DNA of 64,000 bases, from assembly GCA_040220235.1 (NCBI GenBank), contig JAVJTO010000013.1; one strand, given 5' to 3'. The position numbers and the translations under genes were made by a program. The stretch comes from Coleofasciculus sp. B1-GNL1-01. GTDB lineage: Bacteria; Cyanobacteriota; Cyanobacteriia; Cyanobacteriales; Coleofasciculaceae. The notes below the pieces were generated by a model. The model was not told where the DNA came from. It made no database searches and saw only the letters and a program-made list of their open reading frames with translations. Below are positions 10,216 through 27,315 of the stretch, piece by piece (the stretch's first letter is position 1; each line of letters begins with the position of its first letter).

Positions 10216-13200
10216 ATGAGATCTCAATCCACACGAAAGCCTAAACTTCTGGTTGTTGATGACGAACCCGACAACCTGGACTTGCTATATCGAACATTCC
10301 ATCGCGACTATAAAGTCTTGCGGGCGGACAATGGTCCTGCCGCCCTAGAAATTTTGGAAGCTGAAGGAGATGTGGCTGTCATTATCTCCGACCAGCGTAT
10401 GCCACTAATGAGTGGTACGGAGTTTCTCAGTATCACCGCTGCTCAATACCCTGATATTATCCGGATTATCTTGACAGGGTACACCGATGTTGAAGACCTG
10501 GTTGAAGCCATCAATGCGGGTAAAGTATTTAAATACGTCACCAAGCCCTGGAATGCCGAGGAACTCAAGTCAGTCGTGCGGCAAGCCATGGACACTCATA
10601 ATGTCCTTAAGTCCCGCACCAGTGAACTCTGTCGGGCGTTGCGTCGGGAAACCCTGCTGAATACCGTAACCAATACCATTCGCAATGCTCAGTATGACAA
10701 AAGTGGTAGTTCCCCGCTTAAAGACGTTCTCCAGCGGATTGTTGAAACGGTGGGTCACTTGCTAGAAGTCGATGTATGCATTCTTCGTCCCTTCCAGCAA
10801 GAGCAGTTGGTCGATGAATGGTTTGTCTATCAACGGCAACTGAGCGACTCAGGTGGCGAAACTTCAAGGTTTAGAGACAATGGTAGGCAACCCTTATCAC
10901 CGAACCATTCACCATTCGACTTAGCACAGCCGCAACCCAACTCCTGTACCATACAAACCACGGGTGAAGATACAAACGCGACCTCATCGCTACCGCCGCT
11001 TTTAACTCAGACAGTTTGGCAAACCCATGAAGTTACCGTTATTCACGATGTATTGACAGATGAACGATTTAATCAGGATAGTCCTGAAGGCGAAGCTCGG
11101 CTACAGGCGTATCAACAGGCGAATATTCGCTCTAGCTTAGTCGTCCCCCTGATTAGTCAACAGGAATTGGTGGCTGTCATGGCATTACACCAGTGTGTAG
11201 AACCCTATAGCTGGCAAGATGACGAAATTCAACTCGTCGTGATGGTGGCAGACCAAGCTGCCATGGCAATTTCCCAGGCACGGGCGTATGAACAGCTACA
11301 CGCCTTAGCGACGCAGCAAACTTTAATCAACACAATTACTCGCGCTATTCGTTCTAGTCTTGATCCCCAAGAAATTTTTACCGCGATTACTCAACAATTA
11401 GGCGTTGCTCTCAACGTTGATGGTTGTGTTCTGTCTTTGTGGAGTGAAGACGATGAGTTTGTTCAATGTGTGGGCTTGTATGATGGGAAATCGACAAAAG
11501 TAGTGGGAACGTCGGTTAATCATCATGATCAATCTCCAGAGAATAATCAAGTCACTCTGACTCATTCCCCTACTTCCTCCATTGAATCTGTTTCCTCCAC
11601 TCAACTTCCTCTGTCAGCTGTTCCGATTGTCGGCAATCCCGTATTACGGCAGCTTATTGATACCCAAGCCCCAGTGGTGCTTGATGATTTGGCAGCCAAT
11701 CCCCAAATGAATGGGTCTGACCTACCCCTGCGCCAAAATGCCCGCGCCCTTTTGGTGGTGCCTTTATTAGTTGATGGCAAAATTATTGGTAGCATTAGCC
11801 TGCGACAAACCGACACCCCACGCCACTGGTTGCAATCCGAAATTGAACTTACCCAAGCGGTGGCATCCCAAGCGGCAATTGCGGTTCAGCAATCGCGACT
11901 TTATCAAAAAACGCGACAGCAAGCCGAGCGGTTAATGGAATTAGATCGGCAGAAAACGGAATTTTTCCAAAATGTTTCCCACGAATTCCGCACGCCCCTA
12001 ACCCTGATGATTGGACCACTAGAATCGGCAATTAATCAACATCAGGGATTACCGTATGAACAAAGTTCAATCGCACTGCGGAATTCGCGCCGCTTGTTGC
12101 GATTAGTCAATCAGCTATTGGATTTACAGCGACTCGATGCAGGACGGATGCAACCGAGTTTCCGTCCCTGTAATTTAATTGAATTTATTCATCAAATTGT
12201 TGAAACATTTAAACCCTACTGCGAGAAAAAAAATATTAATCTCTTGAGCCAGGTCATCCCTTGTCCTGAGATTTATTTAGATATAGAAAAATTTGACAAG
12301 GTATTATATAATCTCCTGTCAAATGCGATGAAGTTTACCAATGCTGGGGGAAGTATTACCATTACCGTTAAATCGACGGACAATAAAGTTTGTCTAAAAA
12401 TTTCCGATACGGGTATTGGTATTAGTAAAGAACAACTTCCTCATTTATTTGAACGGTTCCGACAAGCAGAAGGCTCAGTCAACCGCAGTTATGAAGGCAG
12501 TGGTTTAGGATTAGCGTTGGTGAAAGAATTAGTAGAACTCCATGGGGGAGAAATTGACGTATCCTCGGAACAGGGAAAAGGAACAACATTCACGATTCAT
12601 TTACAACAAGGAAAAGCTCACCTCCCCGTCGAGCAGATTGTAGATGTTGCCACAGAAATCCAGTCCAGTCGGGCATTGGTGGAACTGGCGGACTTGGAGT
12701 TGAATTCCGTCGGGGAACTCCAAGAGCAACCCGAAGCCGAACCTCAAGAGCCGGGAGATGCTTATTTGATTGTTGATCCACATACACCTTTGGCGGCGAA
12801 AGTAGCGCGAATTTTGGTCGTTGATGATAATTCCGATTTACGGGCTTATGTGGGCAGTATTTTAAAGCAATCGGGGTATCAGGTATGGACAGCACGGAAT
12901 GGGGAAGAGGGATGGCAAATGACGCAGAAGTGCCATCCTCAGCTTATCGTGACTGATTTGATGATGCCTGTGATGTCAGGACTGGATATGATTCATACTA
13001 TTCGGGGTTCCCAGGACTTTAAGGGAATACCGATTATATTGCTCACGGCAAAAGCGGATGAAGCCAGCCGGATTGAGGGAACAGAAAAGGGGGCAGATGC
13101 CTATCTGTCGAAACCGTTTAATGACCGGGAATTGTTGGCAGAAGTCCGGAATTTGTTAGCGCTTAAAGAACAAGAGCAGCGCGTGGTTGAGTTAAATCGA

Positions 13201-13905
13201 TATCTAACTGAGTCGGTACTGAAGCGCTTTTTACCCCCAGCTATGGTTCAGAAAGCAGCACGGGGAGAATTGGCACTGGATTTACATCCAGAACCTCGCT
13301 TGGTTACCTCGTTGTTCAGTGATATTGTTGGATTTACCGAGTTGTCGAATACCTTGCGATCGCGTCGAATTGCCGAGTTGCTGAATGAGTATCTGGCAGC
13401 CATGACCCGTGCGGTGTTTGATAATGGGGGTACAGTGGATAAGTTTATGGGGGATGGTATTTTAGCGATTTTCGGCGCTCCTGAAGAATTAAGTCCTCAC
13501 GAACAAGCTCGACGGGCAATTGCCTCGGCACGACAAATGTTGCGATCGCTCGATGAGCTGAATCAACAGTGGCAAGCGAGGGGATTGGTGGGTAATGGAG
13601 GACCCCCGCCTGTACGATTCCGCTGTGGGATTCATCAAGGAACGGCGGTAGTGGGCATGTTTGGCGGAAATGAACGAACCGACTATACCGCGATCGGTCC
13701 TTCGGTGAATATCGCCGCCCGACTGCAAGAAGCCGCTGAACCGAATTCAATCCTGGTTTCGGCGTCAGTTGCCGATTGGTTAGACGATGACGCGATCGCT
13801 AAGTATCGTTCTCTTAAACTTAAAGGGGTAGATGAGACAGTCTTAACCTTTGCCGTTAACCCTGTGCCAGTAAATGCCAATTCACCCGATCAGGGGAGTC
13901 GTTAG
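10216..13905 (+). CDS. cyaC: CyaC-type multidomain adenylate cyclase (REC-GAF-GAF-HisKA-HATPase-REC-class III cyclase)
   Basis: REC1 is LLVVDDEPDNL...ISDQRMP...KP. H-box is SHEFRTPLT. ATPase boxes are LLSNAMKFT, DTGIGI and GSGLGLALV. REC2 is ILVVDDNSDLR...VTDLMMP...SKP. Cyclase motifs are SLFSDIVGFTELS, DKFMGDGILAIFGAP and YTAIGPSVNIAARL. The domain order is that of Spirulina/Anabaena CyaC. Confidence 0.9.
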   Translation: MRSQSTRKPKLLVVDDEPDNLDLLYRTFHRDYKVLRADNGPAALEILEAEGDVAVIISDQRMPLMSGTEFLSITAAQYPDIIRIILTGYTDVEDLVEAINAGKVFKYVTKPWNAEELKSVVRQAMDTHNVLKSRTSELCRALRRETLLNTVTNTIRNAQYDKSGSSPLKDVLQRIVETVGHLLEVDVCILRPFQQEQLVDEWFVYQRQLSDSGGETSRFRDNGRQPLSPNHSPFDLAQPQPNSCTIQTTGEDTNATSSLPPLLTQTVWQTHEVTVIHDVLTDERFNQDSPEGEARLQAYQQANIRSSLVVPLISQQELVAVMALHQCVEPYSWQDDEIQLVVMVADQAAMAISQARAYEQLHALATQQTLINTITRAIRSSLDPQEIFTAITQQLGVALNVDGCVLSLWSEDDEFVQCVGLYDGKSTKVVGTSVNHHDQSPENNQVTLTHSPTSSIESVSSTQLPLSAVPIVGNPVLRQLIDTQAPVVLDDLAANPQMNGSDLPLRQNARALLVVPLLVDGKIIGSISLRQTDTPRHWLQSEIELTQAVASQAAIAVQQSRLYQKTRQQAERLMELDRQKTEFFQNVSHEFRTPLTLMIGPLESAINQHQGLPYEQSSIALRNSRRLLRLVNQLLDLQRLDAGRMQPSFRPCNLIEFIHQIVETFKPYCEKKNINLLSQVIPCPEIYLDIEKFDKVLYNLLSNAMKFTNAGGSITITVKSTDNKVCLKISDTGIGISKEQLPHLFERFRQAEGSVNRSYEGSGLGLALVKELVELHGGEIDVSSEQGKGTTFTIHLQQGKAHLPVEQIVDVATEIQSSRALVELADLELNSVGELQEQPEAEPQEPGDAYLIVDPHTPLAAKVARILVVDDNSDLRAYVGSILKQSGYQVWTARNGEEGWQMTQKCHPQLIVTDLMMPVMSGLDMIHTIRGSQDFKGIPIILLTAKADEASRIEGTEKGADAYLSKPFNDRELLAEVRNLLALKEQEQRVVELNRYLTESVLKRFLPPAMVQKAARGELALDLHPEPRLVTSLFSDIVGFTELSNTLRSRRIAELLNEYLAAMTRAVFDNGGTVDKFMGDGILAIFGAPEELSPHEQARRAIASARQMLRSLDELNQQWQARGLVGNGGPPPVRFRCGIHQGTAVVGMFGGNERTDYTAIGPSVNIAARLQEAAEPNSILVSASVADWLDDDAIAKYRSLKLKGVDETVLTFAVNPVPVNANSPDQGSR

Positions 13906-14026
13906 AGCCGGGGAAGTTGGAGAGTAGGGGGAGCAGGGGGAGGATGTCAAATACTAGATTAGGAATCTTTGCAGCGCTCACTACGTCTATTTTTGAATGT
14001 AGAAATTTTCGACAACCACACTAATT

Positions 14027-14800
14027 ATGAAACGTTTACGATGGCTCAACGTTGGAGTTCTAACGACGGCATTTCTACTCACCGTCGGATCTTCAAGTTC
14101 CCTAAAGGCAGGCACATTTGATAGTCAAGAAGTCAATTCTGATAATTTTATTGCCGTTGCTGCTCCTTTCGGGGATAACAAGTATCAATTACTGATTATC
14201 GAACAGCGCTCAACCCAACGCGCTTGCTGGCAGGAGGTGGGAAGTAATCCCGCGATCGTTGACCCGTTACTGCTCAATTTTGACTTTACAGGCATTTGCG
14301 GACGTAGCACTGATAGTAATGGTTATTCGATTCGCATGGAGGGTCAAGATTTAGGATTAGACTATTTGCTCAGACTTGTCGAGCGTGACGGCGAGTTAGT
14401 TCTCATTGGTACAAATCGGATGAATCGTCAAGCTCCCAAGGTAGAAATTGGCAGAACTCGAGGATTGAGTAATGGCAATTTCCTCAAAATTGAACTTGAT
14501 CCCGGTTGGCGGTTCACGCGACGTGCTTATCAAGGTCGAGCATTAGGTCATATCTATCTAACAAGCGATACAACGGTTCCAGCAACACCAGCCGTGAGTC
14601 CTCCAAACCCGGTAACGCCAGCAGTACGAGAACCTGCACCCGCAGAAACTGAGCGGGAGTTTATTTTCACAAAGCCAAGCGAGGAAAATACTCCACCCTC
14701 CGTAACTGTACCAACCCTAGACAATCCAGCCACTAATCCTCAAACCCTACCCCCTCCTGCTTCCAATCAGACTGTGCCAATTTTGGAAGAGTTAAGGTAA
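14027..14800 (+). CDS. Secreted protein (resembles the cyanobacterial DUF3747 family, from memory) with a Pro-rich tail
   Basis: Signal peptide MKRLRWLNVGVLTTAFLLTVGSSSSLKA, a Cys-containing globular domain (ACWQEVG...FTGICGRSTDSNGYSIR) and a P/T-rich C-terminus. Confidence 0.6.
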   Translation: MKRLRWLNVGVLTTAFLLTVGSSSSLKAGTFDSQEVNSDNFIAVAAPFGDNKYQLLIIEQRSTQRACWQEVGSNPAIVDPLLLNFDFTGICGRSTDSNGYSIRMEGQDLGLDYLLRLVERDGELVLIGTNRMNRQAPKVEIGRTRGLSNGNFLKIELDPGWRFTRRAYQGRALGHIYLTSDTTVPATPAVSPPNPVTPAVREPAPAETEREFIFTKPSEENTPPSVTVPTLDNPATNPQTLPPPASNQTVPILEELR

Positions 14801-14806
14801 GTGTTG

Positions 14807-14969
14807 TGTAGGGGCGGGTTTCACGACTAATTATTTCTTGCCTCACCTATAGCGCTACGCGCTGGCGTATTTACACATTAGAAATGGAGGCTTTATCAGG
14901 AGTCCTTTAGAACATTTGTACTGTAACTACGCGAGAGGATACTGCTATAGATGTGACTAAACCCGCCCC
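14807..14969. repeat. Long variant of the GGGCGGGTTT hairpin element
   Basis: TGTAGGGGCGGGTTT at 14,807 and AAACCCGCCCC at 14,959 are inverted arms around a ~135-nt loop. Confidence 0.7.
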
Positions 14970-15003
14970 AAGACTGCTCGGATAAGCTCCAATTTCATTT
15001 ACT

Positions 15004-15112
15004 CTCCCCTGCTTCCCCCGCTTCCCCTGCTCCCCCTGCTTCCCCCGCTTCCCCCGCTTCCCCTGCTCCCCCCGCTTCCCCTGCTCCCCTCGCTTCCCCC
15101 GCTTCCCCTGCT
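15004..15112. repeat. Tandem 9-mer array (CYGCTYCCC x ~12)
   Basis: Period-9 repeat read directly. It ends 5 nt from the ftsW stop codon and is G-rich on the ftsW sense strand. Confidence 0.9.
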
Positions 15113-15117
15113 AACCG

Positions 15118-16332
15118 CTAATCTCTCATCCTCTGTAACTGCGTTCTCTGTCGCCTACGCCGCTGAGGTGGTGATTGGCGACGGGCTTGTAAAGAAACGA
15201 CTTGAGCCTCACTACTTTCTCTGGCTACCCGAATCAACAATCCAGCCGAACACAAATTGGCAATCATGGAACTTCCCCCATAACTAAAAAATGGGAAGGG
15301 TAAACCCGTAGTCGGGAGAACCCCTGTGGCGACACCAATATTCAACAGCGACTGACCGACAATTACAATCATCGCTCCGATCGCGACTAACCGATGCACA
15401 GGATGACGGGTTTTCAATGCCACAATTGTTGCCAAGGTAGCATAAGCTACGATCAGCAGCAGCAACAACGTACTGCCGACAAAGCCAAATTCTTCAGCAA
15501 ATACGGCAAAAATAAAGTCGGTATACTGAATCGGTAAATAAAACAACTTTTGTTGGGATAGACCAAACCCTGAACCCCATGTCCCTCCCGAACCCACCGC
15601 CAGCAGGCTTTGAATCAATTGATAGCCGTCATTCATCGGATCAGCCCAGGGATTAAGAAATGACATCACCCGACGCCGCTGATACTCTTTGATGCTGATA
15701 CTAATCGTTGCCAGTAACACGCCTCCCAAGGCGGTTCCTCCTAAGTAGGAAAAGGGCAACCCCGCCGCCAGTGCAATGAGCCACAGCGTCATCCCACATA
15801 GCGCCGTTGTACTCAGATTGGGTTGGAGCAAAATTCCCAACAGCACTAGGGCAAACATCCCTAGCCAGAACAGGCGTACTCGCACGGAAATCTGTTGCCA
15901 TTGCCCAAAGATGCAAGCACTCTGAAGGATCAGAAACGGTTTAATTAATTCCGAGGGTTGTAGGGGAACAGGACCCAGGGATAGCCAACGGGTTGCGCCA
16001 TTCACCGTCGTCCCCACACCGGGAATTAGGATGATCAAGATCAACCCCAATAACACCAGCATTATCCAATGGGCAATTTTGAGGATATACCGTAAAGGCG
16101 ATCGCACAAAAAAGTTAAAGGCGATCATGCCCAGGGTAATCCAGATGAGCTGTCGCTTAAAGTAATATAAACCGTCACCAAACTCAGCATCGGCACTGGG
16201 ATAGGATGCCGAGAACAGCACCGCTAAACCCACCAATAGCCACAGAAAGGTTAACCAGCGCAATAGACGGGCATCGATTCCCCAGTCCTTAGCCGAAGGA
16301 TGAATCCATGAAATCAGGTTACGTAGAGTCAC
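15118..16332 (-). CDS. ftsW: SEDS-family peptidoglycan polymerase / cell-division protein (FtsW/RodA/SpoVE family)
   Basis: Polytopic membrane protein with the SEDS signature TTGLPFPFFSYGGSSM. The N-terminus is ARLLRWLTFLWLLVGLAVLFSASY. The FtsW versus RodA assignment is tentative. Confidence 0.8.
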   Translation of the reverse strand: MTLRNLISWIHPSAKDWGIDARLLRWLTFLWLLVGLAVLFSASYPSADAEFGDGLYYFKRQLIWITLGMIAFNFFVRSPLRYILKIAHWIMLVLLGLILIILIPGVGTTVNGATRWLSLGPVPLQPSELIKPFLILQSACIFGQWQQISVRVRLFWLGMFALVLLGILLQPNLSTTALCGMTLWLIALAAGLPFSYLGGTALGGVLLATISISIKEYQRRRVMSFLNPWADPMNDGYQLIQSLLAVGSGGTWGSGFGLSQQKLFYLPIQYTDFIFAVFAEEFGFVGSTLLLLLIVAYATLATIVALKTRHPVHRLVAIGAMIVIVGQSLLNIGVATGVLPTTGLPFPFFSYGGSSMIANLCSAGLLIRVARESSEAQVVSLQARRQSPPQRRRRQRTQLQRMRD

Positions 16333-16696
16333 TAATCGTCAAATGATTACTCTCAATTAGGGTAACGCAACCGGAGGCTACCATCCAGTAAGGGAGCTGC
16401 GTAAAAATAAAGTACCAGTGAGGAAAGCTGTCTTCATCAACTCAGCTAAGCTTGATTGGTATATTATTAAGCCGCAAGTCCCTAATCCTTCGTGTTCGTA
16501 GTTGCGCTGTCTTCGTCGATTTGCCTCAGATCACCAAAATGCTCAAACCTATATTGTTATCGCGATCGTGTATCGATGGATTAATCCTACTGCTTCTAGC
16601 CAGAGTAACGCCTCTAGATATTGGCTTTTTTGTGAATTCAGGGTTAAATCGGGTGAACAAGGATTCCTCGGTTATCTATGGCTGAGTGCAACATTT

Positions 16697-17362
16697 CTAC
16701 TGCCAGGAGAGAAATAAATGAAGCAGGTTTATCGAAGAGTTCTGTTTGTTTTGACGATGACGAGTGCGATAAAGGTTGGAATATTCGCCAAAGCTATTCT
16801 CTGACATCAAACTTTCCTCGATACAAGTTTCTTGTTTTGTTTGTTCTAGTCGGTCACCAATTCGATCAATACAACCCTTGGTGTTACCATCAATCACAAA
16901 ACCTAACATAGCAGCACATCCATGACGAGGACAGTAAATACCGTTAACAAAACGCACAATGCCTTCTGTAATATATTTTTTGGCTAACTCTCTGTCTTTA
17001 CCTGTTGTCCTGCTACTCACTCGTTTACACTCCATACCGAAGTATTCTGCTTCATCAAAGCTATAGATAATTTTTATATCAATTCTGCCTTCTGGTTCAA
17101 CTGAATCTGGTGAAGACAAAGTGCCAACTTCTGGTTCAATTCGGAGCTGGCTTTTTAACCCCGGACGAGAGTTCTTTTCGGATGTCATCGCTCTCCGTAA
17201 ATAGCCAGCGATTTTGGGTTCGAGCATTGTTGGAATAACCTCATCAATAGTTATGACCTTTGACCAAGCAACCACAGTGATATTTAAAATTGTGGCAATA
17301 ATATCTACAGATATGTTTATGGTCGCTTGTCCAACTGCACTCGGTTCATCCAATGGGAGCAT
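16697..17362 (-). CDS. PD-(D/E)xK nuclease-fold candidate (putative restriction endonuclease partner)
   Basis: GRIDIKIIY...(10 aa)...FGMECKR gives D95 ... E111-x-K113 spacing, typical of the restriction-endonuclease fold. It overlaps the stop of the upstream methyltransferase by 17 nt. AT-rich codon usage. Confidence 0.55.
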   Translation of the reverse strand: MLPLDEPSAVGQATINISVDIIATILNITVVAWSKVITIDEVIPTMLEPKIAGYLRRAMTSEKNSRPGLKSQLRIEPEVGTLSSPDSVEPEGRIDIKIIYSFDEAEYFGMECKRVSSRTTGKDRELAKKYITEGIVRFVNGIYCPRHGCAAMLGFVIDGNTKGCIDRIGDRLEQTKQETCIEESLMSENSFGEYSNLYRTRHRQNKQNSSINLLHLFLSWQ

Positions 17363-20300
17363 GACTTGTTCTTAAATACTCAGACAGTATAGTATCTGCA
17401 TCATTTAAACCAGCAGAACGAGTCCAATAAATACGTTTAGCTGGTTTGACGATGTAGATATCTTTTCCTACATAAATTCGCAAGTTTCGACGAGTATAAA
17501 TGCGGTCAGCGATTTGCTGCGGTAATTGTTCAGCAATTCTCTTAAGAACTGCTTCTAATTTATGTCCTGAAATAGTTTGTACAATAGGTGGCTGATTAGA
17601 GACAGGAACTATACTGAACTTGACCACCTGTAATGGTGCTTTACCAACATCAATAACCTCAGCAACTATTTGCCTTTCATTTAGTGTTTGTAGAAATGGT
17701 TGAATGACTCCGATTAACTGTGTGGCATACCGGGTTAACTCATCATATTGAGTTCGTATCAATGCTAGAGACTGCTCCCTATTCATATAGAAGTCGATAG
17801 TTATTTTATTTGTATCTTCAACTAGAATTCGTTCGGTTTCATCCAATTCATAAAGCTGAAACACTAATTGATCTAAAGTGAGTTTTAAATTAACCTCTGA
17901 AGAACTGCCATGTAACTTGCACAATTTTCCTTCTATATCAATGATCTGATTAACTAAAGTTGAATTTTTAGAGGTAATTTTAGGAATAGGCAGACGCGAT
18001 AAATCCTGTGTCATAATTTTCTTTCTTTCTACGCCCCAAGAAGAAGCCGTCATAAATATAAAATAACTTGTTACTGATGAATTAAGAACAGCATTTAGAT
18101 AATGGGCTGTAAATTCTGAGTTAACTGGAATGCCAGAATAGCTCATCGTATAAACTATATCTTCAGAGCTAAAAGCAGCTATAACATTACTCGATTCGAT
18201 TTTTTCTGAAACAACTATCAGTGGACTTCTATAAATATTGGAATTTCTCGGCGATTCTAATTTGGAATAAGCAAACTCTTCCAAGTCATTGGGATTAATT
18301 TTATATCTCTGCATCAGGCTGGAAGCAAGAATCTTTTTCCCATATAGATAGGATGGAGATTTTTTTCTTTTATTGCCAACTTTCAGTCCAGCCTTAGGCG
18401 GACTACCTGCTATTTGCTCAATCTTTTCATAGGATGTCCGCAAACGTTGAATGAGTGATAAATCTCTAGCAGATCCCCATGTAGCAATCTTAAACATATC
18501 AGCATCATGTGCAACATCATATGCTGATAATTTCTTTATATTTTCTGATCCCATTTCGATAATTCCATGGCGTCTAAAGTCTACAGATCGTTCTGGACAT
18601 ACAAAATAAAACGAATTATTATGTTTCGTTTTATTTAATTCTGCAATCAACACTATAGCTGGCGCTTCAGACTTGGGAAATAGGTTATCTCTGTATAGCT
18701 TCAGCAGGTTAATAATTACCTTTGGTTTATATCTCGTTAAAATTTTTTTCTTGGCTTCTTGAGCATCTGGATGATTACTAAAAAAACGTTGACCGTGTAA
18801 AATTAGACCAATTTGAGTACGAGTATTCGCAAAATCACCTATACGCCACAAAAATGCTTGATCCGGTGGTGTACCGTAAGCTGTAGGATATCCTTCGGGG
18901 TATCCCATTTCAGGACGCTTACGATTACAGTATGCTGATGCCGATTTAGTTGCTCCCGACTTTGTCCAAGGTGGATTGCCCACAATTGCACTAAACTGCT
19001 TATGAGCAAAAGGTTCTATTCTATTGAATTCTGCCCCTTCATCAAAAGCATCACCAATAAACAAATTTTTCCCAATAATTTTTTCAAATTGTAAATCCTC
19101 TGAAATACCAGGATTTCGTTCTAATTCATAATCTAGCTCTAAAGCTGTAAGATATAAACTAAACGCAGCAATTTGAATAGCTTTTTGTTTTATATCTACA
19201 CCATAAATTTGATGATAGAGAGTGTCACGAACTAGCTGACGGTAATTCTGCTCTCCACTAGCCAAACGCTTCACCACTAATCGTCGTAAAGCGTCTACTA
19301 AAAACACGCCTGAACCACAAGCAAGATCGAGAACTTTGGCATTGCCATCAAGTTCTTTAAAGACTTCTGATAGAACTATGTCAACTAAATTAATTGGTGT
19401 ATAGTGGGTACTATGCTCTTTAGCTGACTTGGTATCTTCTGCATAAATAAACTTCTCGTAAATCGCACTAATTAACTCAACAGGAATTACTTTAAAGTTA
19501 TAGGCTCGCCAAAGGCGTAGTTGACCTGTTTTCAATTCTTGCAGCCCACCGATAAAGTTTTTGAGCACTTCTAAATGCTTTAGCTGCACTCGATTTATCT
19601 CTTCGCTGGATAAGCTAAATAAGTCTCCATTAAATGTTCTTTGTATCCAGGAAAATAAATGCTCAGTGGCTGACTTATTCTCTAGGATTTCTGTAAAACT
19701 ATTGAATCCGAATTGTCGCTGTAACAACTGAGAATCAAGGATTTCTCTATCTTGAAGATAAGCGACAAAGATAGACTGAATCAAAAGACTCTGAGCAACC
19801 GAACGGTTTAACCTTTTATCCTCGACTAAAATCTCTTCCGTATCGGTTAAATCTTTAACCAAAACCGCATCAACTCTTTGCTTGCGATCAATTTGCTTAG
19901 CTTTTTCCCATTGCCAAAATTCACCTGACTCAATTTGGATACGGCTGGCATACTGATTTAATTGCTTCAATCCAGTTTCAGTCTGCTGAAAAATCTCAAT
20001 CAGATGTCGCTCTGGATTATTTCTATCGTTTTCTGTCGGTTGAGAATAGCAGTTATAGAGTAAAACCTTAGTTGGAGTCACAACCCACAACATTGGAGCT
20101 AAACCATGATTCCAAGACAATTGATGCAACCGAGCTAGTTCTTGAGGCTCAGGATCTGATTCTCGCAGTTGAGTAAAATAGATGCAAGGCGATCCACATA
20201 ACTCAAAAATTGCTGTAGCATTTAACTGTTCAGGGTTAATAACTGCACTGTATTTAATCCGTTTATCAAGTTGTTGAGGATTACTACGAAGTGATGCCGC

Positions 20301-20396
20301 TGGAATAACGCCAGATGTTGGAATGCCATTCCGATAGAAGCCTGTTGCTTCCATAACTTGCAAATATGAAGTTGTGACCGCAGTTTGGGAAGACAT
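17346..20396 (-). CDS. Large (1016 aa) gamma-class N6-adenine DNA methyltransferase (Eco57I/type IIG-like methylase module)
   Basis: Motif X-like STHYTPINLV, motif I VLDLACGSGVFLVDA and motif IV IVGNPPW appear in the gamma order. About 330 aa N-terminal and ~450 aa C-terminal carry no motif I can place. Confidence 0.85.
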   Translation of the reverse strand: MSSQTAVTTSYLQVMEATGFYRNGIPTSGVIPAASLRSNPQQLDKRIKYSAVINPEQLNATAIFELCGSPCIYFTQLRESDPEPQELARLHQLSWNHGLAPMLWVVTPTKVLLYNCYSQPTENDRNNPERHLIEIFQQTETGLKQLNQYASRIQIESGEFWQWEKAKQIDRKQRVDAVLVKDLTDTEEILVEDKRLNRSVAQSLLIQSIFVAYLQDREILDSQLLQRQFGFNSFTEILENKSATEHLFSWIQRTFNGDLFSLSSEEINRVQLKHLEVLKNFIGGLQELKTGQLRLWRAYNFKVIPVELISAIYEKFIYAEDTKSAKEHSTHYTPINLVDIVLSEVFKELDGNAKVLDLACGSGVFLVDALRRLVVKRLASGEQNYRQLVRDTLYHQIYGVDIKQKAIQIAAFSLYLTALELDYELERNPGISEDLQFEKIIGKNLFIGDAFDEGAEFNRIEPFAHKQFSAIVGNPPWTKSGATKSASAYCNRKRPEMGYPEGYPTAYGTPPDQAFLWRIGDFANTRTQIGLILHGQRFFSNHPDAQEAKKKILTRYKPKVIINLLKLYRDNLFPKSEAPAIVLIAELNKTKHNNSFYFVCPERSVDFRRHGIIEMGSENIKKLSAYDVAHDADMFKIATWGSARDLSLIQRLRTSYEKIEQIAGSPPKAGLKVGNKRKKSPSYLYGKKILASSLMQRYKINPNDLEEFAYSKLESPRNSNIYRSPLIVVSEKIESSNVIAAFSSEDIVYTMSYSGIPVNSEFTAHYLNAVLNSSVTSYFIFMTASSWGVERKKIMTQDLSRLPIPKITSKNSTLVNQIIDIEGKLCKLHGSSSEVNLKLTLDQLVFQLYELDETERILVEDTNKITIDFYMNREQSLALIRTQYDELTRYATQLIGVIQPFLQTLNERQIVAEVIDVGKAPLQVVKFSIVPVSNQPPIVQTISGHKLEAVLKRIAEQLPQQIADRIYTRRNLRIYVGKDIYIVKPAKRIYWTRSAGLNDADTILSEYLRTSHAPIG

Positions 20397-21005
20397 ACCG
20401 CTAACTCCATGGGATATCTAATTCGTCACTAACTTGTCAACTGGATTTATAGCTCCTAGACGAGTCCGCTTGTCAAAGTCTAAAACTTGATTCTTTTCAG
20501 CTTCCCGGTATAGCTCAGTAATTACATCACCAACTGGACCAACTTCCCGAATAACAACCCGTCAAGGCTATGGTTTCCGGTCGGTTAAATCCGCTAACCA
20601 CAAAGAACTCCTGGATATCACAGTTAGGACAAGAATAACTCGATTGTTTTAATTTTAAACCGAAATTAAAACATTTATTTAAAATTTTTCACTAATGTAT
20701 AGGTATAACCCTCCTCAGTCCACCTCTACATCCCCGTGACAAACGTTTCTTTCACACATAGCGATCGCGTCTCCACAACCCAAACTCTTCATAAATCCAC
20801 CAGCCATACCAGCGCCAGAATCATCCTCACCTGTACCATAAAGTTGAGAGTATTACCCAACAGCCAGAGAATCGCGATCGCAGGATTCAAGGTTAGCCGT
20901 TTCACCGAACAGGTAGATCCCCTTAGACTGTATAGAATAGTACGATTTCTGAGATCTGACGACCAGCGACTAAACTAAAAAGTAACTACCTTCCTTAGTG
21001 TTCCT

Positions 21006-21788
21006 ATGACGCCTAGCCAGAGTTCAGACGCCACAACTGAAAAAACTGCCCAAATTGAACCCGAAGAGATTATTATTCCACCATGGGATTTGTGGAGTGA
21101 TGAACCGCCCTTGGAAAGCGATCGGCATCGAGATCAAATTGAACTACTTTTGGCTTGCCTGAAATGGTGGTGGCGAGAACGTACTGACTTTTATGCCACT
21201 GGGAACCTTACCATTTATTTTAGTCCTGACCACATCACCACAAGAGACTTTCGCGGACCTGATTTTTTTGTCGTGTTGGGTGTGGAAAACCGACCTCGAA
21301 AAAGTTGGGTTTTGTGGGCAGAACAAGGAAAATATCCCAATGTGATCATTGAACTGCTTTCGGATAGCACAGCGAAGGTGGATCGAGGGGATAAGAAAAC
21401 ACTGTATCAGGATACCTTTCGCACACCCGAATATTTTTGGTTTCACCCTGACACCTTAGAGTTTCAAGGATTCTGCTTAGTTCGAGGTGAATATCAGCCA
21501 CTGGAATCAAATCAGCAAGGCTGGTTATGGAGTCAACAGTTACAATTATTTTTAGGAGTGCATCAATCAACCCTGCGATTTTTCAGTTCAGAGGGACAGT
21601 TAGTATTAACGCCAGCAGAGAGGGCAGAATTAGCCCAACAGCAGGCTGAAGCTGCACAACAGCAGGCTGAAGCTGCACAACAACAGGTTGAGTTAGAACG
21701 ACAACAACGAGAACTGGCACAACAACGGGTTGAGGAATTACTCGCTAAACTCAAGGAGCTAGGGATTGACTCTGATACAGAAAATTAA
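21006..21788 (+). CDS. Uma2-family (DUF820) PD-(D/E)xK endonuclease with a C-terminal coiled coil
   Basis: GPDFFVVLGV...PNVIIELLSDST...KKTLYQDTFRTPEYFWFHP is the characteristic Uma2 core. The tail is AELAQQQAEAAQQQAEAAQQQVELERQQRELAQQRVEELLAKLKELG. Confidence 0.85.
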   Translation: MTPSQSSDATTEKTAQIEPEEIIIPPWDLWSDEPPLESDRHRDQIELLLACLKWWWRERTDFYATGNLTIYFSPDHITTRDFRGPDFFVVLGVENRPRKSWVLWAEQGKYPNVIIELLSDSTAKVDRGDKKTLYQDTFRTPEYFWFHPDTLEFQGFCLVRGEYQPLESNQQGWLWSQQLQLFLGVHQSTLRFFSSEGQLVLTPAERAELAQQQAEAAQQQAEAAQQQVELERQQRELAQQRVEELLAKLKELGIDSDTEN

Positions 21789-21799
21789 GTAGCTAAATA

Positions 21800-22013
21800 G
21801 GGGCTGCTGAATAAGTCTTGTGGTGGGGAGAGGCAATAGGGAATAGGCAATGGGCAATGGTTTTAACCCTCTGTCGAGGGAAAATTCGGCGCTGACGTAG
21901 GCAAAAATTCCAGGATGCAAGAGAGTGGTAGTGTAAAAACCTTGCACTTGTTGGGTCAAAAAATGGCTTGAAACCCCTATCTAGTCTACCTTACACACTT
22001 ATGCAGCAAGCCC
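21800..22013 (+). mobile_element. MITE family A, full copy 1 (~214 bp, imperfect 15-16 bp terminal inverted repeats)
   Basis: Starts GGGGCTGCTGAATAAG and ends CTTATGCAGCAAGCCC. It aligns along its whole length with the reverse complement of 52,095-52,307, by eye ~85% identical. No ORF of its own. Confidence 0.8.
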
Positions 22014-22094
22014 TAAATATAAATTCTGTATTCTGTATGTTATCTTGTCCTAACCTCAATGTGTAGCGCTATACGTTCTGACAATTTTCCAATC

Positions 22095-22118
22095 AAAAAG
22101 GGGTCATCGCGACCCCCC
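22095..22118 (-). terminator. Intrinsic terminator of the apc operon
   Basis: The minus strand reads GGGGTC-GCGAT-GACCCC followed by TTTTT, about 25 nt after the apcC stop codon. Confidence 0.8.
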
Positions 22119-22141
22119 ACCTTTGCCGTAGAAGCTATTTT

Positions 22142-22345
22142 TTAAAGCAATCCAGTATTTGTACCTTGTTTGCCAGTCGCTAGCTTCACATTGATAATTT
22201 TGCCGCCCATTTTCATGATCCGCTGTTGTTCGCGGAACCAGTTGTCGTAGGGAACTAACTTAGTGAAATAGGTGTTTTGCAACTCCCGTTGAGTTCGGGT
22301 TCTAGTTTGGCTGGGGACGCAAGCCGTCACCTGAAACATTCGCAT
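22142..22345 (-). CDS. apcC: Phycobilisome core linker LC7.8 (allophycocyanin-associated)
   Basis: 67 aa, MRMFQVTACVPSQTRTRTQRELQNTYFTKLVPYDNWFREQQRIMKMGGKI, a CpcD-like domain. It sits downstream of apcAB. Confidence 0.95.
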   Translation of the reverse strand: MRMFQVTACVPSQTRTRTQRELQNTYFTKLVPYDNWFREQQRIMKMGGKIINVKLATGKQGTNTGLL

Positions 22346-22547
22346 GATTGAAGTTCTCCTAATTAAAACTCAAAAACTTTATATTGCAATCAGGTTTGGG
22401 ACTCAACTGTCAATACTAGATTGTCAAAACTCATCTGCTTAACTAAAAAGTCAGACGTGCCTTTAACAAGCTAGCACTCACAATTGATTTCCCAAACCTT
22501 GAAAAAATGACCGACTACAGGTTCACAAGGGAACGTTCCAGAATTTT

Positions 22548-23033
22548 CTAGCTCAAACCCGAGCAAATGTAGTCGAAGTAAACACCCATTTCCTTGCCAG
22601 CATCAGCACCAACCAAACTGGCGGTAACTTCTTTCATGGCTTGGATGGCTTGTACGGTTGCACTAATGGGAACACCTAGAGAATTATAGGTTTCCTTGAG
22701 TCCATTCAGTACACGCTCATCCAGGATGGAGGTGTCACCCGCCAACATGGCATAGGTGGAGTAGCGCAGATAGTAGTCCAAGTCGCGGATACAAGCAGCG
22801 TAGCGGCGAGTGGTGTACATGTTGCCACCCGGACGAGTGATATCCGAGTAGAGCAAAGACTTGGCAACAGCTTCTTTAACGATAGTTGCTGCGTTAGCAC
22901 TGATTGTGGTTGCCGCACGCACCCGCAATTCACCCGTGGCGAAATAGCCCTTGAGCTTGTCCATCGCAGAGGCGTCCAGGTATTTTCCTTGAACGTCGGA
23001 AGAGTTAATAACAGAGGTAATTGCGTCTTGCAT
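22548..23033 (-). CDS. apcB: Allophycocyanin beta subunit
   Basis: 161 aa, [20 protein letters not shown]...[22 protein letters not shown], with the chromophore Cys in the CIRD context. Confidence 0.97.
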
Positions 23034-23138
23034 CGATTCTATTTTCCTTATTTCACCTAGTCTCTCGAATCCTTAAGACAGACGTGCAACGTCCAGGTGT
23101 GGAAGCGTCATGCTACGTCTTTCCCTGTAGGATAGGGT

Positions 23139-23624
23139 CTACTGCATTGCTCCGATTACATAGTCGAAGTAGGAGCCAGCTTCAGCCGCATCTTCCCCAG
23201 TCATCATACCGGTAGCAGCGGTTTTCATGGCACGAACGCCTTCGACAACAGCGTCAACGGGAGTTCCTAAAGACTTGTACATTTCCCGCACGCCGACTAA
23301 GCCAATTTCTTCAATTGGGGTAACATCGCCAGCGACAACACCATAAGTGATTAGGCGCAGATAGTAGTCCAAGTCACGCAGACAAGTTGCTGTCATTTCT
23401 TCACCGTAGGCATTACCACCGGGAGAAACAACATCAGGACGCTTCTGGAATAACTGGTCTCCAGCTTGCTTAACGATGCGCTCACGAGAGTCTGTCAACG
23501 TTTGAGCAACCCGTAGGCGACGATCACCAGAGGTCACAAACGACTTGATCCGGTCTAATTCACCAGGGCTTAGGTAACGAGCCTCGGCATCGGCATTCAC
23601 GATTGATTTCGTGACTATACTCAT
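23139..23624 (-). CDS. apcA: Allophycocyanin alpha subunit
   Basis: 161 aa, [29 protein letters not shown]...[23 protein letters not shown]. Confidence 0.97.
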
Positions 23625-23920
23625 TTACAGGATTCCTCCTCCAAGAATGTAACCAGGTGTGTGTACTTAAACTGGCTTATTGTAACTGTTGAAACGCTGA
23701 AACGCTTCCCAATGGGCTAGACTTTCTAGCTTAATGGCTGACTCTGCCCGATCTTGAAACGACTTAATCGACTCAAGGTTGGTGAGAGTAGCTAGCGATA
23801 CATTAGGTCAGTGAGACAGCTCTCTTCCGCAAATATTTTGCGATAGATTGTTCACATTTTTCCTATGTTCGCAACATTTTGTAACATTTGTCCTCAGATT
23901 TAGGGGTAGGGAACGCTGAT

Positions 23921-23985
23921 TGTAGAGACGTAGCATCCTACGTCTCTACACCCTATCTTGCTCAGAGACGTGCCATGGCACGCCT
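23921..23985. repeat. Two adjacent palindromic repeats (TGTAGAGACGTAGCATCCTACGTCTCTACA; AGAGACGTGCCATGGCACGCCT)
   Basis: Read directly. They lie in the apcE-apcA spacer, 19-80 nt after the apcE stop. Confidence 0.85.
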
Positions 23986-24003
23986 GGAACATTACCCTAA
24001 TCC

Positions 24004-27315
<3,312 letters not shown>

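Follow-up and report, generated by a model that had tools for sequence, protein, structure and literature searches.

Between ftsW and a Uma2-family gene, the 64,000-nucleotide stretch of Coleofasciculus sp. B1-GNL1-01 analysed here (contig JAVJTO010000013.1, hereafter the window) carries an AT-rich module that encodes a large gamma-class N6-adenine DNA methyltransferase (MTase), a small stand-alone candidate nuclease and the remnant of a MerR-like helix-turn-helix (HTH) regulator, with a dyad upstream of the latter (Table 1). An earlier note on this DNA had described an AT-rich insertion whose only intact open reading frames (ORFs) were a methyltransferase and a nuclease-fold protein. Both ORFs are present and, in line with the earlier suggestion of a defence module, the cargo pairs a methyltransferase with a candidate nuclease in the manner of restriction–modification (R–M) systems. 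What had been overlooked is the third gene, the MerR-like regulator, which is inactivated in this genome by a 307-bp deletion. The island as then delimited (16440–20700) lies within ~45 bp of the module as it is defined against the homologous locus of Coleofasciculus sp. A1-SPW-01 (L081), namely 16483–20701.

Table 1. Features of the module and its surroundings, in window coordinates
Feature	Coordinates	Strand	Basis or remark
Junction filler, 106 bp	16388..16493	no strand	unique to this window
Strain-variable segment, 5.7 kb	16392..22067	no strand	ftsW upstream region to apcC terminator hairpin; alignments with L001, L027, L004 and L003
Module 3' untranslated tail	16494..16696	-	contains degenerate HIP1 GCGATCGT (16562–16569)
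Stand-alone PD-(D/E)XK-type nuclease candidate gene, 221 aa	16697..17362	-	motif and model topology
Gamma-class N6-adenine DNA methyltransferase gene, 1016 aa	17346..20396	-	Pfam, PADLOC, motifs
Hypervariable cassette coding for the target recognition domain (MTase residues 551–900)	17697..18746	-	allele comparison
MerR-like HTH regulator pseudogene	20418..20601	-	alignment with L081 and L093
29-bp perfect dyad, TGTTTTAATTT-N7-AAATTAAAACA	20645..20673	-	~45 bp upstream of regulator start; candidate operator
Host-like segment, GC ~0.45, two HIP1 sites	20702..22067	no strand	carries Uma2-family gene; part of variable segment
Uma2-family gene	21006–21788	+	Pfam Uma2 2e-24

The MTase is laid out as an N-terminal region of ~300 aa, the MTase core, a TaqI_C-type target recognition domain (TRD) and a C-terminal region. 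Read in translation, motif I (VLDLACGSGVFL) and motif IV (NPPW) are intact, and Pfam recognizes N6_Mtase (4e-17), Eco57I (4e-15), TaqI_C (8e-10, spanning residues 695–804) and MmeI_Mtase (7e-8). The family is large (more than 1800 hits), and its members carry no annotation beyond ‘N-6 DNA methylase’ or ‘HsdM family’. A single-sequence search of the PDB gave no match for the MTase, and a profile search gave weak similarity confined to the S-adenosylmethionine (AdoMet) motif region (motifs I–IV) of PglX, BrxX and MmeI.

The nuclease gene begins within the end of the MTase gene, the two sharing 17 nt. Among 45 homologues of the small protein the invariant residues are E77, D94, E110-C-K112, H146, H201 and H214. 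An AlphaFold model (predicted local distance difference test score, pLDDT, 86; predicted template modelling score 0.85) displays an alpha-beta-beta-beta-alpha-beta order, with helices at residues 47–64 and 125–138 and strands at 73–75, 95–98, 106–114 and 148–155. D94 opens the second strand and E110 and K112 lie in the third. Both the topology and the D...ExK signature of a PD-(D/E)XK core are thus found in the model, which qualifies the 221-aa protein as a candidate nuclease. The sequence has no match in Pfam, NCBIfam, PADLOC, PHROGs or the PDB sequences. The family is nonetheless large: an exhaustive profile search recovered ~1500 clusters at 50% identity, 644 of them at E<=1e-10. When 1.8 billion representatives were searched for domain fusions, the top 150 hits were all stand-alone proteins of 70–290 aa, and no homologue was found in phage genomes. 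As a PD-(D/E)XK partner of a methylase, this large family, which carries no annotation in the databases searched, gains a testable function.

Which of the two enzymes reads the DNA? A nuclease that recognizes its own site would have to change whenever the specificity of the methylase changes, and alleles from the same genomic site allow the two to be followed in parallel. Between Coleofasciculus alleles the TRD is 42–84% identical at the amino acid level, whereas the rest of the MTase is 87–97% identical; the most divergent pairs, at 42–53%, are the window with L090 (Coleofasciculus sp. G2-EDA-02), the window with L091, and L081 with L090. In the same-site alleles the nuclease is 91–96% identical, the regulator 95–98% and the N-terminal part of the MTase 89–97%. 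At the nucleotide level identity dips at 17500–18750, and synonymous divergence (dS) reaches ~2.0, that is saturation, for the most divergent TRD alleles, as opposed to 0.14–0.29 in the rest of the gene. The ratio of nonsynonymous to synonymous divergence (dN/dS) is 0.12–0.23 for the MTase and nuclease genes, and both are under purifying selection. On the lineage leading to the window the nuclease gene has undergone 7 synonymous and 2 nonsynonymous changes and the MTase core 7 and 5, with no excess over the sister lineages. The pattern of alleles indicates that TRD cassettes are imported by recombination and that the nuclease does not co-vary with them. Because the TRDs have fallen to 42–53% identity while the nucleases remain at 91–96%, DNA specificity can be assigned to the methylase, and the nuclease, rather than being an independent reader, is most likely a recruited catalytic subunit.

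Based on these observations, we interpret the module, as the probable explanation of the locus, as an R–M-type defence operon in which the MTase/TRD chain acts as the sole DNA reader and as protector of the host, the PD-(D/E)XK protein cuts, and the MerR-like protein serves as an autoregulator in cyanobacteria. The intact operon would comprise three genes under one promoter, encoding the MerR-like HTH regulator, the gamma-class N6-adenine MTase with its recognition domain and the PD-(D/E)XK nuclease. Through its swappable TRD the methylase would recognize a short DNA motif and methylate host sites. The nuclease, devoid of specificity of its own and either recruited by the methylase or acting together with it, would cut unmethylated incoming DNA, an arrangement that could be described as a ‘split Type IIG’ or a helicase-less Type III-like system. 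Expression would be set by a dimer of the MerR-like protein bound to the 29-bp dyad of the operon promoter. In this genome the regulator has been lost to the 307-bp deletion, but both enzyme ORFs and the candidate operator are intact, so that the system is probably still encoded but no longer regulated.

Several points weigh against this interpretation. When the nuclease model was compared with the PDB by Foldseek nothing significant was retrieved (best E 0.055), and the identification as a nuclease therefore depends on motif and topology; the weak recurrences were EcoRV and OkrAI, at probabilities of 0.2–0.75 (EcoRV 0.5–0.75 over 66 columns). The N-terminal ~300 aa of the MTase are modelled with a pLDDT of 55, from a shallow alignment, and could hide a catalytic domain. 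No canonical promoter was seen at the dyad in a sigma-70 scan with 16–18-bp spacing, which in total gave fewer matches than expected from shuffled sequence. The role of the regulator is uncertain, as it is inactivated in this genome and missing from distant two-gene versions of the module. Finally, the analogous dnmA-yeeB-yeeC cluster conferred neither restriction nor phage protection in B. subtilis (PMC9973331).

Could the MTase chain be a complete enzyme on its own? In a single-chain Type IIG system the N-terminal domain of the MTase would be the nuclease and the 221-aa protein an accessory, be it a second nuclease, a modification-dependent enzyme or a repair factor. Such an arrangement is suggested by the PADLOC model REase_MTase_IIG (PDLC03603), which matches the MTase over nearly its full length at 4e-76, and by the N-terminal ~300-aa domain itself, which is conserved and otherwise unexplained. 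We consider it unlikely. The N-terminal 335 aa, like the C-terminal ~200 aa, have no Pfam match even at E<=10, and the MmeI N-terminal and nuclease families do not match. No conserved D...(D/E)xK is seen among the invariant residues of homologues in this region. Across its first ~130 aa just one acidic residue, E65, is otherwise invariant, and this one is substituted in a Mameliella homologue whose alignment runs from end to end. By hhalign the domain is unrelated to the family of the small nuclease (probability 0.2%). On the Agrobacterium tumefaciens plasmid pAtA74a_a (L096:4798–7687) a 739-aa MTase lacking the ~280-aa N-terminal domain still keeps its nuclease partner, with a stop/start overlap between the two genes; this hints either that the domain is dispensable for the partnership or that the copy is truncated. 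The Type IIG label attached by PADLOC cannot be confirmed, as a fused nuclease was not found, and for large MTases that label sometimes rests mainly on size (PMC8262939).

Another possibility is that the locus is a decaying or domesticated remnant, in which restriction ceased with the loss of the regulator and the methylase persists in the role proposed for DnmA of B. subtilis, that of an orphan epigenetic MTase. The pseudogenization of the regulator, the repeated loss of the locus among strains and the precedent of a non-restricting MmeI-like cluster just mentioned are in keeping with this idea. However, neither the MTase nor the nuclease ORF is truncated and both retain their motifs, the nonsynonymous changes on the window lineage counted above show no excess, and the promoter and the dyad are preserved. 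Natural two-gene versions, moreover, seem to do without a regulator gene. We regard a remnant as doubtful.

A classical two-enzyme Type II system, in which the 221-aa protein is an independent sequence-specific endonuclease for the site of the methylase, seems very unlikely. In its favour, Type IIP enzymes typically have this size and a PD-(D/E)XK motif, the weak structural matches are to EcoRV and OkrAI, and the nuclease gene adjoins the MTase gene. An independent reader would nevertheless have to co-vary with the TRDs, and the near-constancy of the nuclease beside recognition domains with saturated dS is difficult to reconcile with this requirement. In addition, a single profile gathers the whole nuclease family, unlike the restriction endonucleases of Type IIP, which are rarely similar except between isoschizomers (PMC2731913).

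How does the split-enzyme operon that we favour relate to established systems? Type IIG/IIL enzymes (the MmeI, Eco57I and BpuSI families) likewise place a swappable TaqI_C-type TRD in the chain of a large gamma-class N6-adenine MTase, whose core is of the Eco57I/MmeI_Mtase type and contains motif I and NPPW, and they have no companion MTase or HsdS gene. In the module, by contrast, the MTase chain has no recognizable nuclease domain or PD-ExK motif, and the candidate nuclease is encoded by a separate, translationally coupled downstream gene. Among the published ideas that we found, the closest concerns MmeI homologues of the YeeA group, which have no endonuclease motif. Morgan et al. (2009, PMC2731913) proposed that these proteins provide the specificity for separate cleavage subunits and modify the host DNA. 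The concept is shared with the module; in YeeA/DnmA-YeeB-YeeC an MmeI-like MTase/TRD subunit without its own nuclease is always flanked by conserved partner genes. There, however, the partners are a superfamily 2 helicase and a GIY-YIG/T5orf172 protein, whereas here there is no helicase but a PD-(D/E)XK protein and a MerR-like regulator, and the MTase N-terminal domains also differ. Type III systems share with the module a specificity that lies only in the methylase subunit (Mod), a nuclease (Res) that depends on it, a mod-then-res operon and TRD alleles exchanged between strains. Res is a helicase-nuclease of ~900 aa, whereas the 221-aa partner has no ATPase, and Mod is beta-class rather than gamma-class with a TaqI_C TRD. 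We reject a Type III assignment, as the partner has no helicase domain and the conserved unit no helicase gene.

C-protein Type II operons resemble the module in that a small HTH protein is encoded first and has a dyad operator in its own promoter; C proteins, though, are XRE-type HTH proteins of ~80–100 aa, whereas the regulator here is a 165-aa protein with a MerR_1-type HTH and an extra C-terminal domain, and distant members of the module family have no such regulator. With PglX of BREX and MAD2 of MADS the likeness is limited to weak similarity around the AdoMet-binding motifs. Both of these systems were rejected: the NCBIfam model BREX_1_MTaseX, which has a cut-off of 500, gives 40 bits, and no PglZ, BrxC, BrxL or other BREX/MADS genes occur in the contexts examined. 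Type I R–M was likewise rejected, there being no HsdS or HsdR in the module and an hsdM TIGR00497 score of 19 against a cut-off of 243; a Type I system found in one context (L088) is a separate neighbouring operon. We found no description in the literature of a triad of MerR-like protein, MTase and nuclease. Tentatively, the module may represent an unnamed R–M class: a helicase-less two-subunit enzyme with a Type IIG-like gamma-MTase/TRD chain as sole reader, a small, universally conserved and detachable PD-(D/E)XK cutter from the unannotated family of ~1500 clusters, a MerR-type switch in cyanobacteria and TRD exchange without change of the nuclease.

What are the implications of such a split enzyme? 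If it is confirmed, many cyanobacterial and alphaproteobacterial-plasmid ‘Type IIG’ methylases would be the specificity and modification subunit of a split enzyme, and inventories of R–M and defence systems would have to be recounted. The enzyme would be naturally modular, its specificity reprogrammable by TRD swaps. For the genetics of Coleofasciculus and Nostocales the module is a likely barrier to transformation, one whose specificity varies by strain.

The regulator is an intact 165-aa protein in sister alleles, L093 among them. In the window the reading frame shifts after the GTG start and 15 codons, and what remains of the 3' end, the last 47 codons, stands in another frame. The cause is the loss of 307 bp at ~20560–20563 between GGT microhomologies. 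This deletion is probably recent, judging from the lack of a nonsynonymous excess on the window lineage. A 157–168-aa gene with a MerR_1-type HTH precedes the MTase gene in L081 and in the Anabaena/Dolichospermum contigs L083–85. An intact homologue scores 29.4 bits with Pfam MerR_1 (cut-off 21.6; E 8e-7), and the sources of the family name it ‘MerR family transcriptional regulator’. Of the three proteins of the module it is the best conserved, at 64–80% across cyanobacteria. Upstream of the homologous gene in other genera the dyad has equivalents of the same span with compensating changes in the arms, TGTATTAA..TTAATACA in L087 and TGTTTAAA..TTTAAACA in L084, L088 and L089. It resembles the operator of a dimeric HTH protein, for which the MerR-like protein is the presumptive partner. 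By eye, the dyad lies between TTAAAT and TAAAAT hexamers 19 bp apart, which may correspond to the layout of MerR-type promoters.

Beyond the sister alleles at this site, the triad is found in 7/7 cyanobacterial contexts, counting those with upstream DNA. Two of these are defence neighbourhoods, with Type I R–M in L088 and DpdD/PLD/DndB genes in L089. In the latter, the Calothrix contig JACJQG010000116 (L089:8242–14697), the triad adjoins PLDc_2, DpdD and DndB-family genes and large helicases, and the region looks like a DNA-modification/defence island. At 45–47% nuclease identity the MTase and nuclease occur as a pair without the MerR-like gene. At ~26–31% identity the pair is found on Agrobacterium and Mameliella plasmids, of which the Mameliella plasmid is conjugative, with an MTase alignment that runs end to end.

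When did the module enter this lineage? The earlier note had taken low GC, the lack of highly iterated palindrome 1 (HIP1) octamers and the lack of host repeats as signs of recently acquired foreign DNA. The compositional drop that it saw by eye is borne out by calculation. GC is 0.379 in 16440–20700 and 0.464 in the remaining window; this is the lowest-GC 4.26-kb stretch of the window (the lowest elsewhere is 0.415), and 500-bp windows inside it descend to 0.326. GC at third codon positions is 0.27 in the MTase gene and 0.34 in the nuclease gene, compared with 0.44–0.56 in ftsW, apcB, apcA and an upstream histidine kinase gene. Tetranucleotide distance peaks at 0.0274 in the 4.2-kb stretch from 16501 (window median 0.0135; 95th percentile 0.0201), and the TETRA correlation of that stretch is among the lowest in the window (0.46–0.48 versus a median of 0.68). 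No tandem repeat arrays lie between 15112 and 21636 and no GGGCGGGTTT units inside the island, so that for these two kinds of repeat the description of the island as repeat-free also holds.

The argument from HIP1 is weak. Sites at 16098 and 20761 enclose 4663 bp that contain none, as had been reported. A longer gap, of 6025 bp, exists elsewhere in the window, however, and the present one, second in length, is not significant: with correction for composition and at the enrichment of the host, 1.4 sites are expected (P(0)=0.25). Sister alleles, moreover, have HIP1 inside the module. The octamer at 16562–16569, GCGATCGT, is one mismatch away from HIP1 and corresponds to an intact site, GCGATCGC, in L081, L090 and L093, while in L091 and L092 the homologous position is mutated differently. 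These intact copies and divergent mutations show that HIP1 sites inside the module arise or persist and turn over fast. Low GC is a property of the module wherever it resides. In every host checked its GC is 5–15 points under that of the flanks, over a range of flank or host GC from 0.37 to 0.63 (module/flank: Coleofasciculus 0.38/0.47, Nostocales 0.32–0.35/0.37–0.43, others 0.42–0.44/0.51–0.53, a Chloroflexia contig 0.48/0.63). AT-richness is therefore intrinsic to the module, and with a constant offset in all hosts it does not date the arrival.

The distribution of the module among strains points to a long history. It occupies the identical site in five or more other Coleofasciculus-type contigs (L081/L082, L090, L091, L092 and L093), whereas three close relatives, L001, L027 and L004, lack it, and on the ftsW tree carriers and non-carriers are intermingled. 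Outside the TRD it is 93–99% identical to L081 at the nucleotide level, as are the flanks, and the dS of its core (0.14–0.25) is no lower than that of ftsW (0.05–0.29). Since sister strains hold it at the same site, its core is as diverged as ftsW and presence and absence are interleaved, we conclude that the module is a presence/absence polymorphism of long standing, which homologous recombination has either maintained or shuffled, and not a recent acquisition. Recent arrival of foreign DNA, for which the deviant composition, the lack of HIP1 and tandem repeats and the three module-free relatives might speak, is already largely refuted and in our judgement highly improbable, given these sister copies and their dS, the interleaving, the GC deficit common to all hosts, the insignificance of the HIP1 gap and the lack of an integrase, tRNA or terminal repeats. 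Low GC and absent host repeats, from which recent arrival is commonly inferred, did not mean recent arrival here.

The surrounding locus is a place of repeated exchange. FtsW of the window is 97–99% identical to that of several metagenome-assembled genomes, which marks the organism as a Coleofasciculus. In nearly all Coleofasciculaceae fetched, the start of ftsW lies ~170–300 bp from apcC, which is followed by apcB, apcA and apcE, and we take this to be the ancestral layout. A synteny comparison of the kind that the earlier note had recommended recovered the three module-free relatives with shorter spacers (L027 589 bp, L001 981 bp, L004 1493 bp) and supports insertion of accessory DNA into an ancestrally short ftsW–apcC spacer. 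Homology of the window to these relatives ends at ~16391 and resumes at ~22068, at the apcC terminator hairpin; the right border drawn previously is therefore not the boundary of the insertion, as the extra DNA reaches ~22067 and takes in the Uma2 gene. At the other border, L081 and L093 have 0–17 bp joining ftsW-proximal DNA to the module in the place of the 106-bp filler, which in a blastn-short search over the fetched loci and the window matched only itself.

An integrase-mediated genomic island was considered and rejected. No integrase or transposase ORF was found in 16392–22067 and no tRNA in 12000–26000; the recommended search for direct and inverted repeats at the borders returned short matches at chance level, none bracketing the module. 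Other strains carry other cargo in the same spacer. L001 (8961–9942) and L027 (9355–9944) have a pair of small toxin–antitoxin-like ORFs, which we presume from their own sequences to be DUF433-like and PIN/DUF5615-like. In L004 (8453–9946) there is a remnant of a TnpB/OrfB_IS605-like ORF, and the spacer of L002 is rearranged. The ftsW–apcC spacer is thus a cargo hotspot, a site of recurrent integration or replacement.

The Uma2 gene is itself variable. It is present in L092 and L093, where the protein is 100% and 98% identical to that of the window, fragmented in L091 and absent in L081 and L090, and a 94-bp piece survives in L001. The C-terminal tail of the Uma2 protein contains an in-frame 21-nt repeat (21636–21691) that encodes QQQAEAA-type heptads. 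Directly downstream of the ftsW stop lies a 9-nt/27-nt tandem array of 12 TCCCCCGCT-like copies (15005–15112). Alignments of the window to its relatives break or gap at 14796–15119, which suggests that the length of the array varies between strains.

The window as a whole also shows a marked avoidance of certain palindromes. GGCC occurs twice in the 64 kb (8522 and 28767), whereas ~171–177 occurrences are expected (observed/expected 0.01), and CAGCTG once against 15 expected; ACGCGT, ACTAGT, CACGTG and CCGCGG are absent, with 2–5 expected each. The extreme depletion of GGCC and CAGCTG implies that the lineage has probably been under long-standing restriction pressure of the HaeIII and PvuII types.

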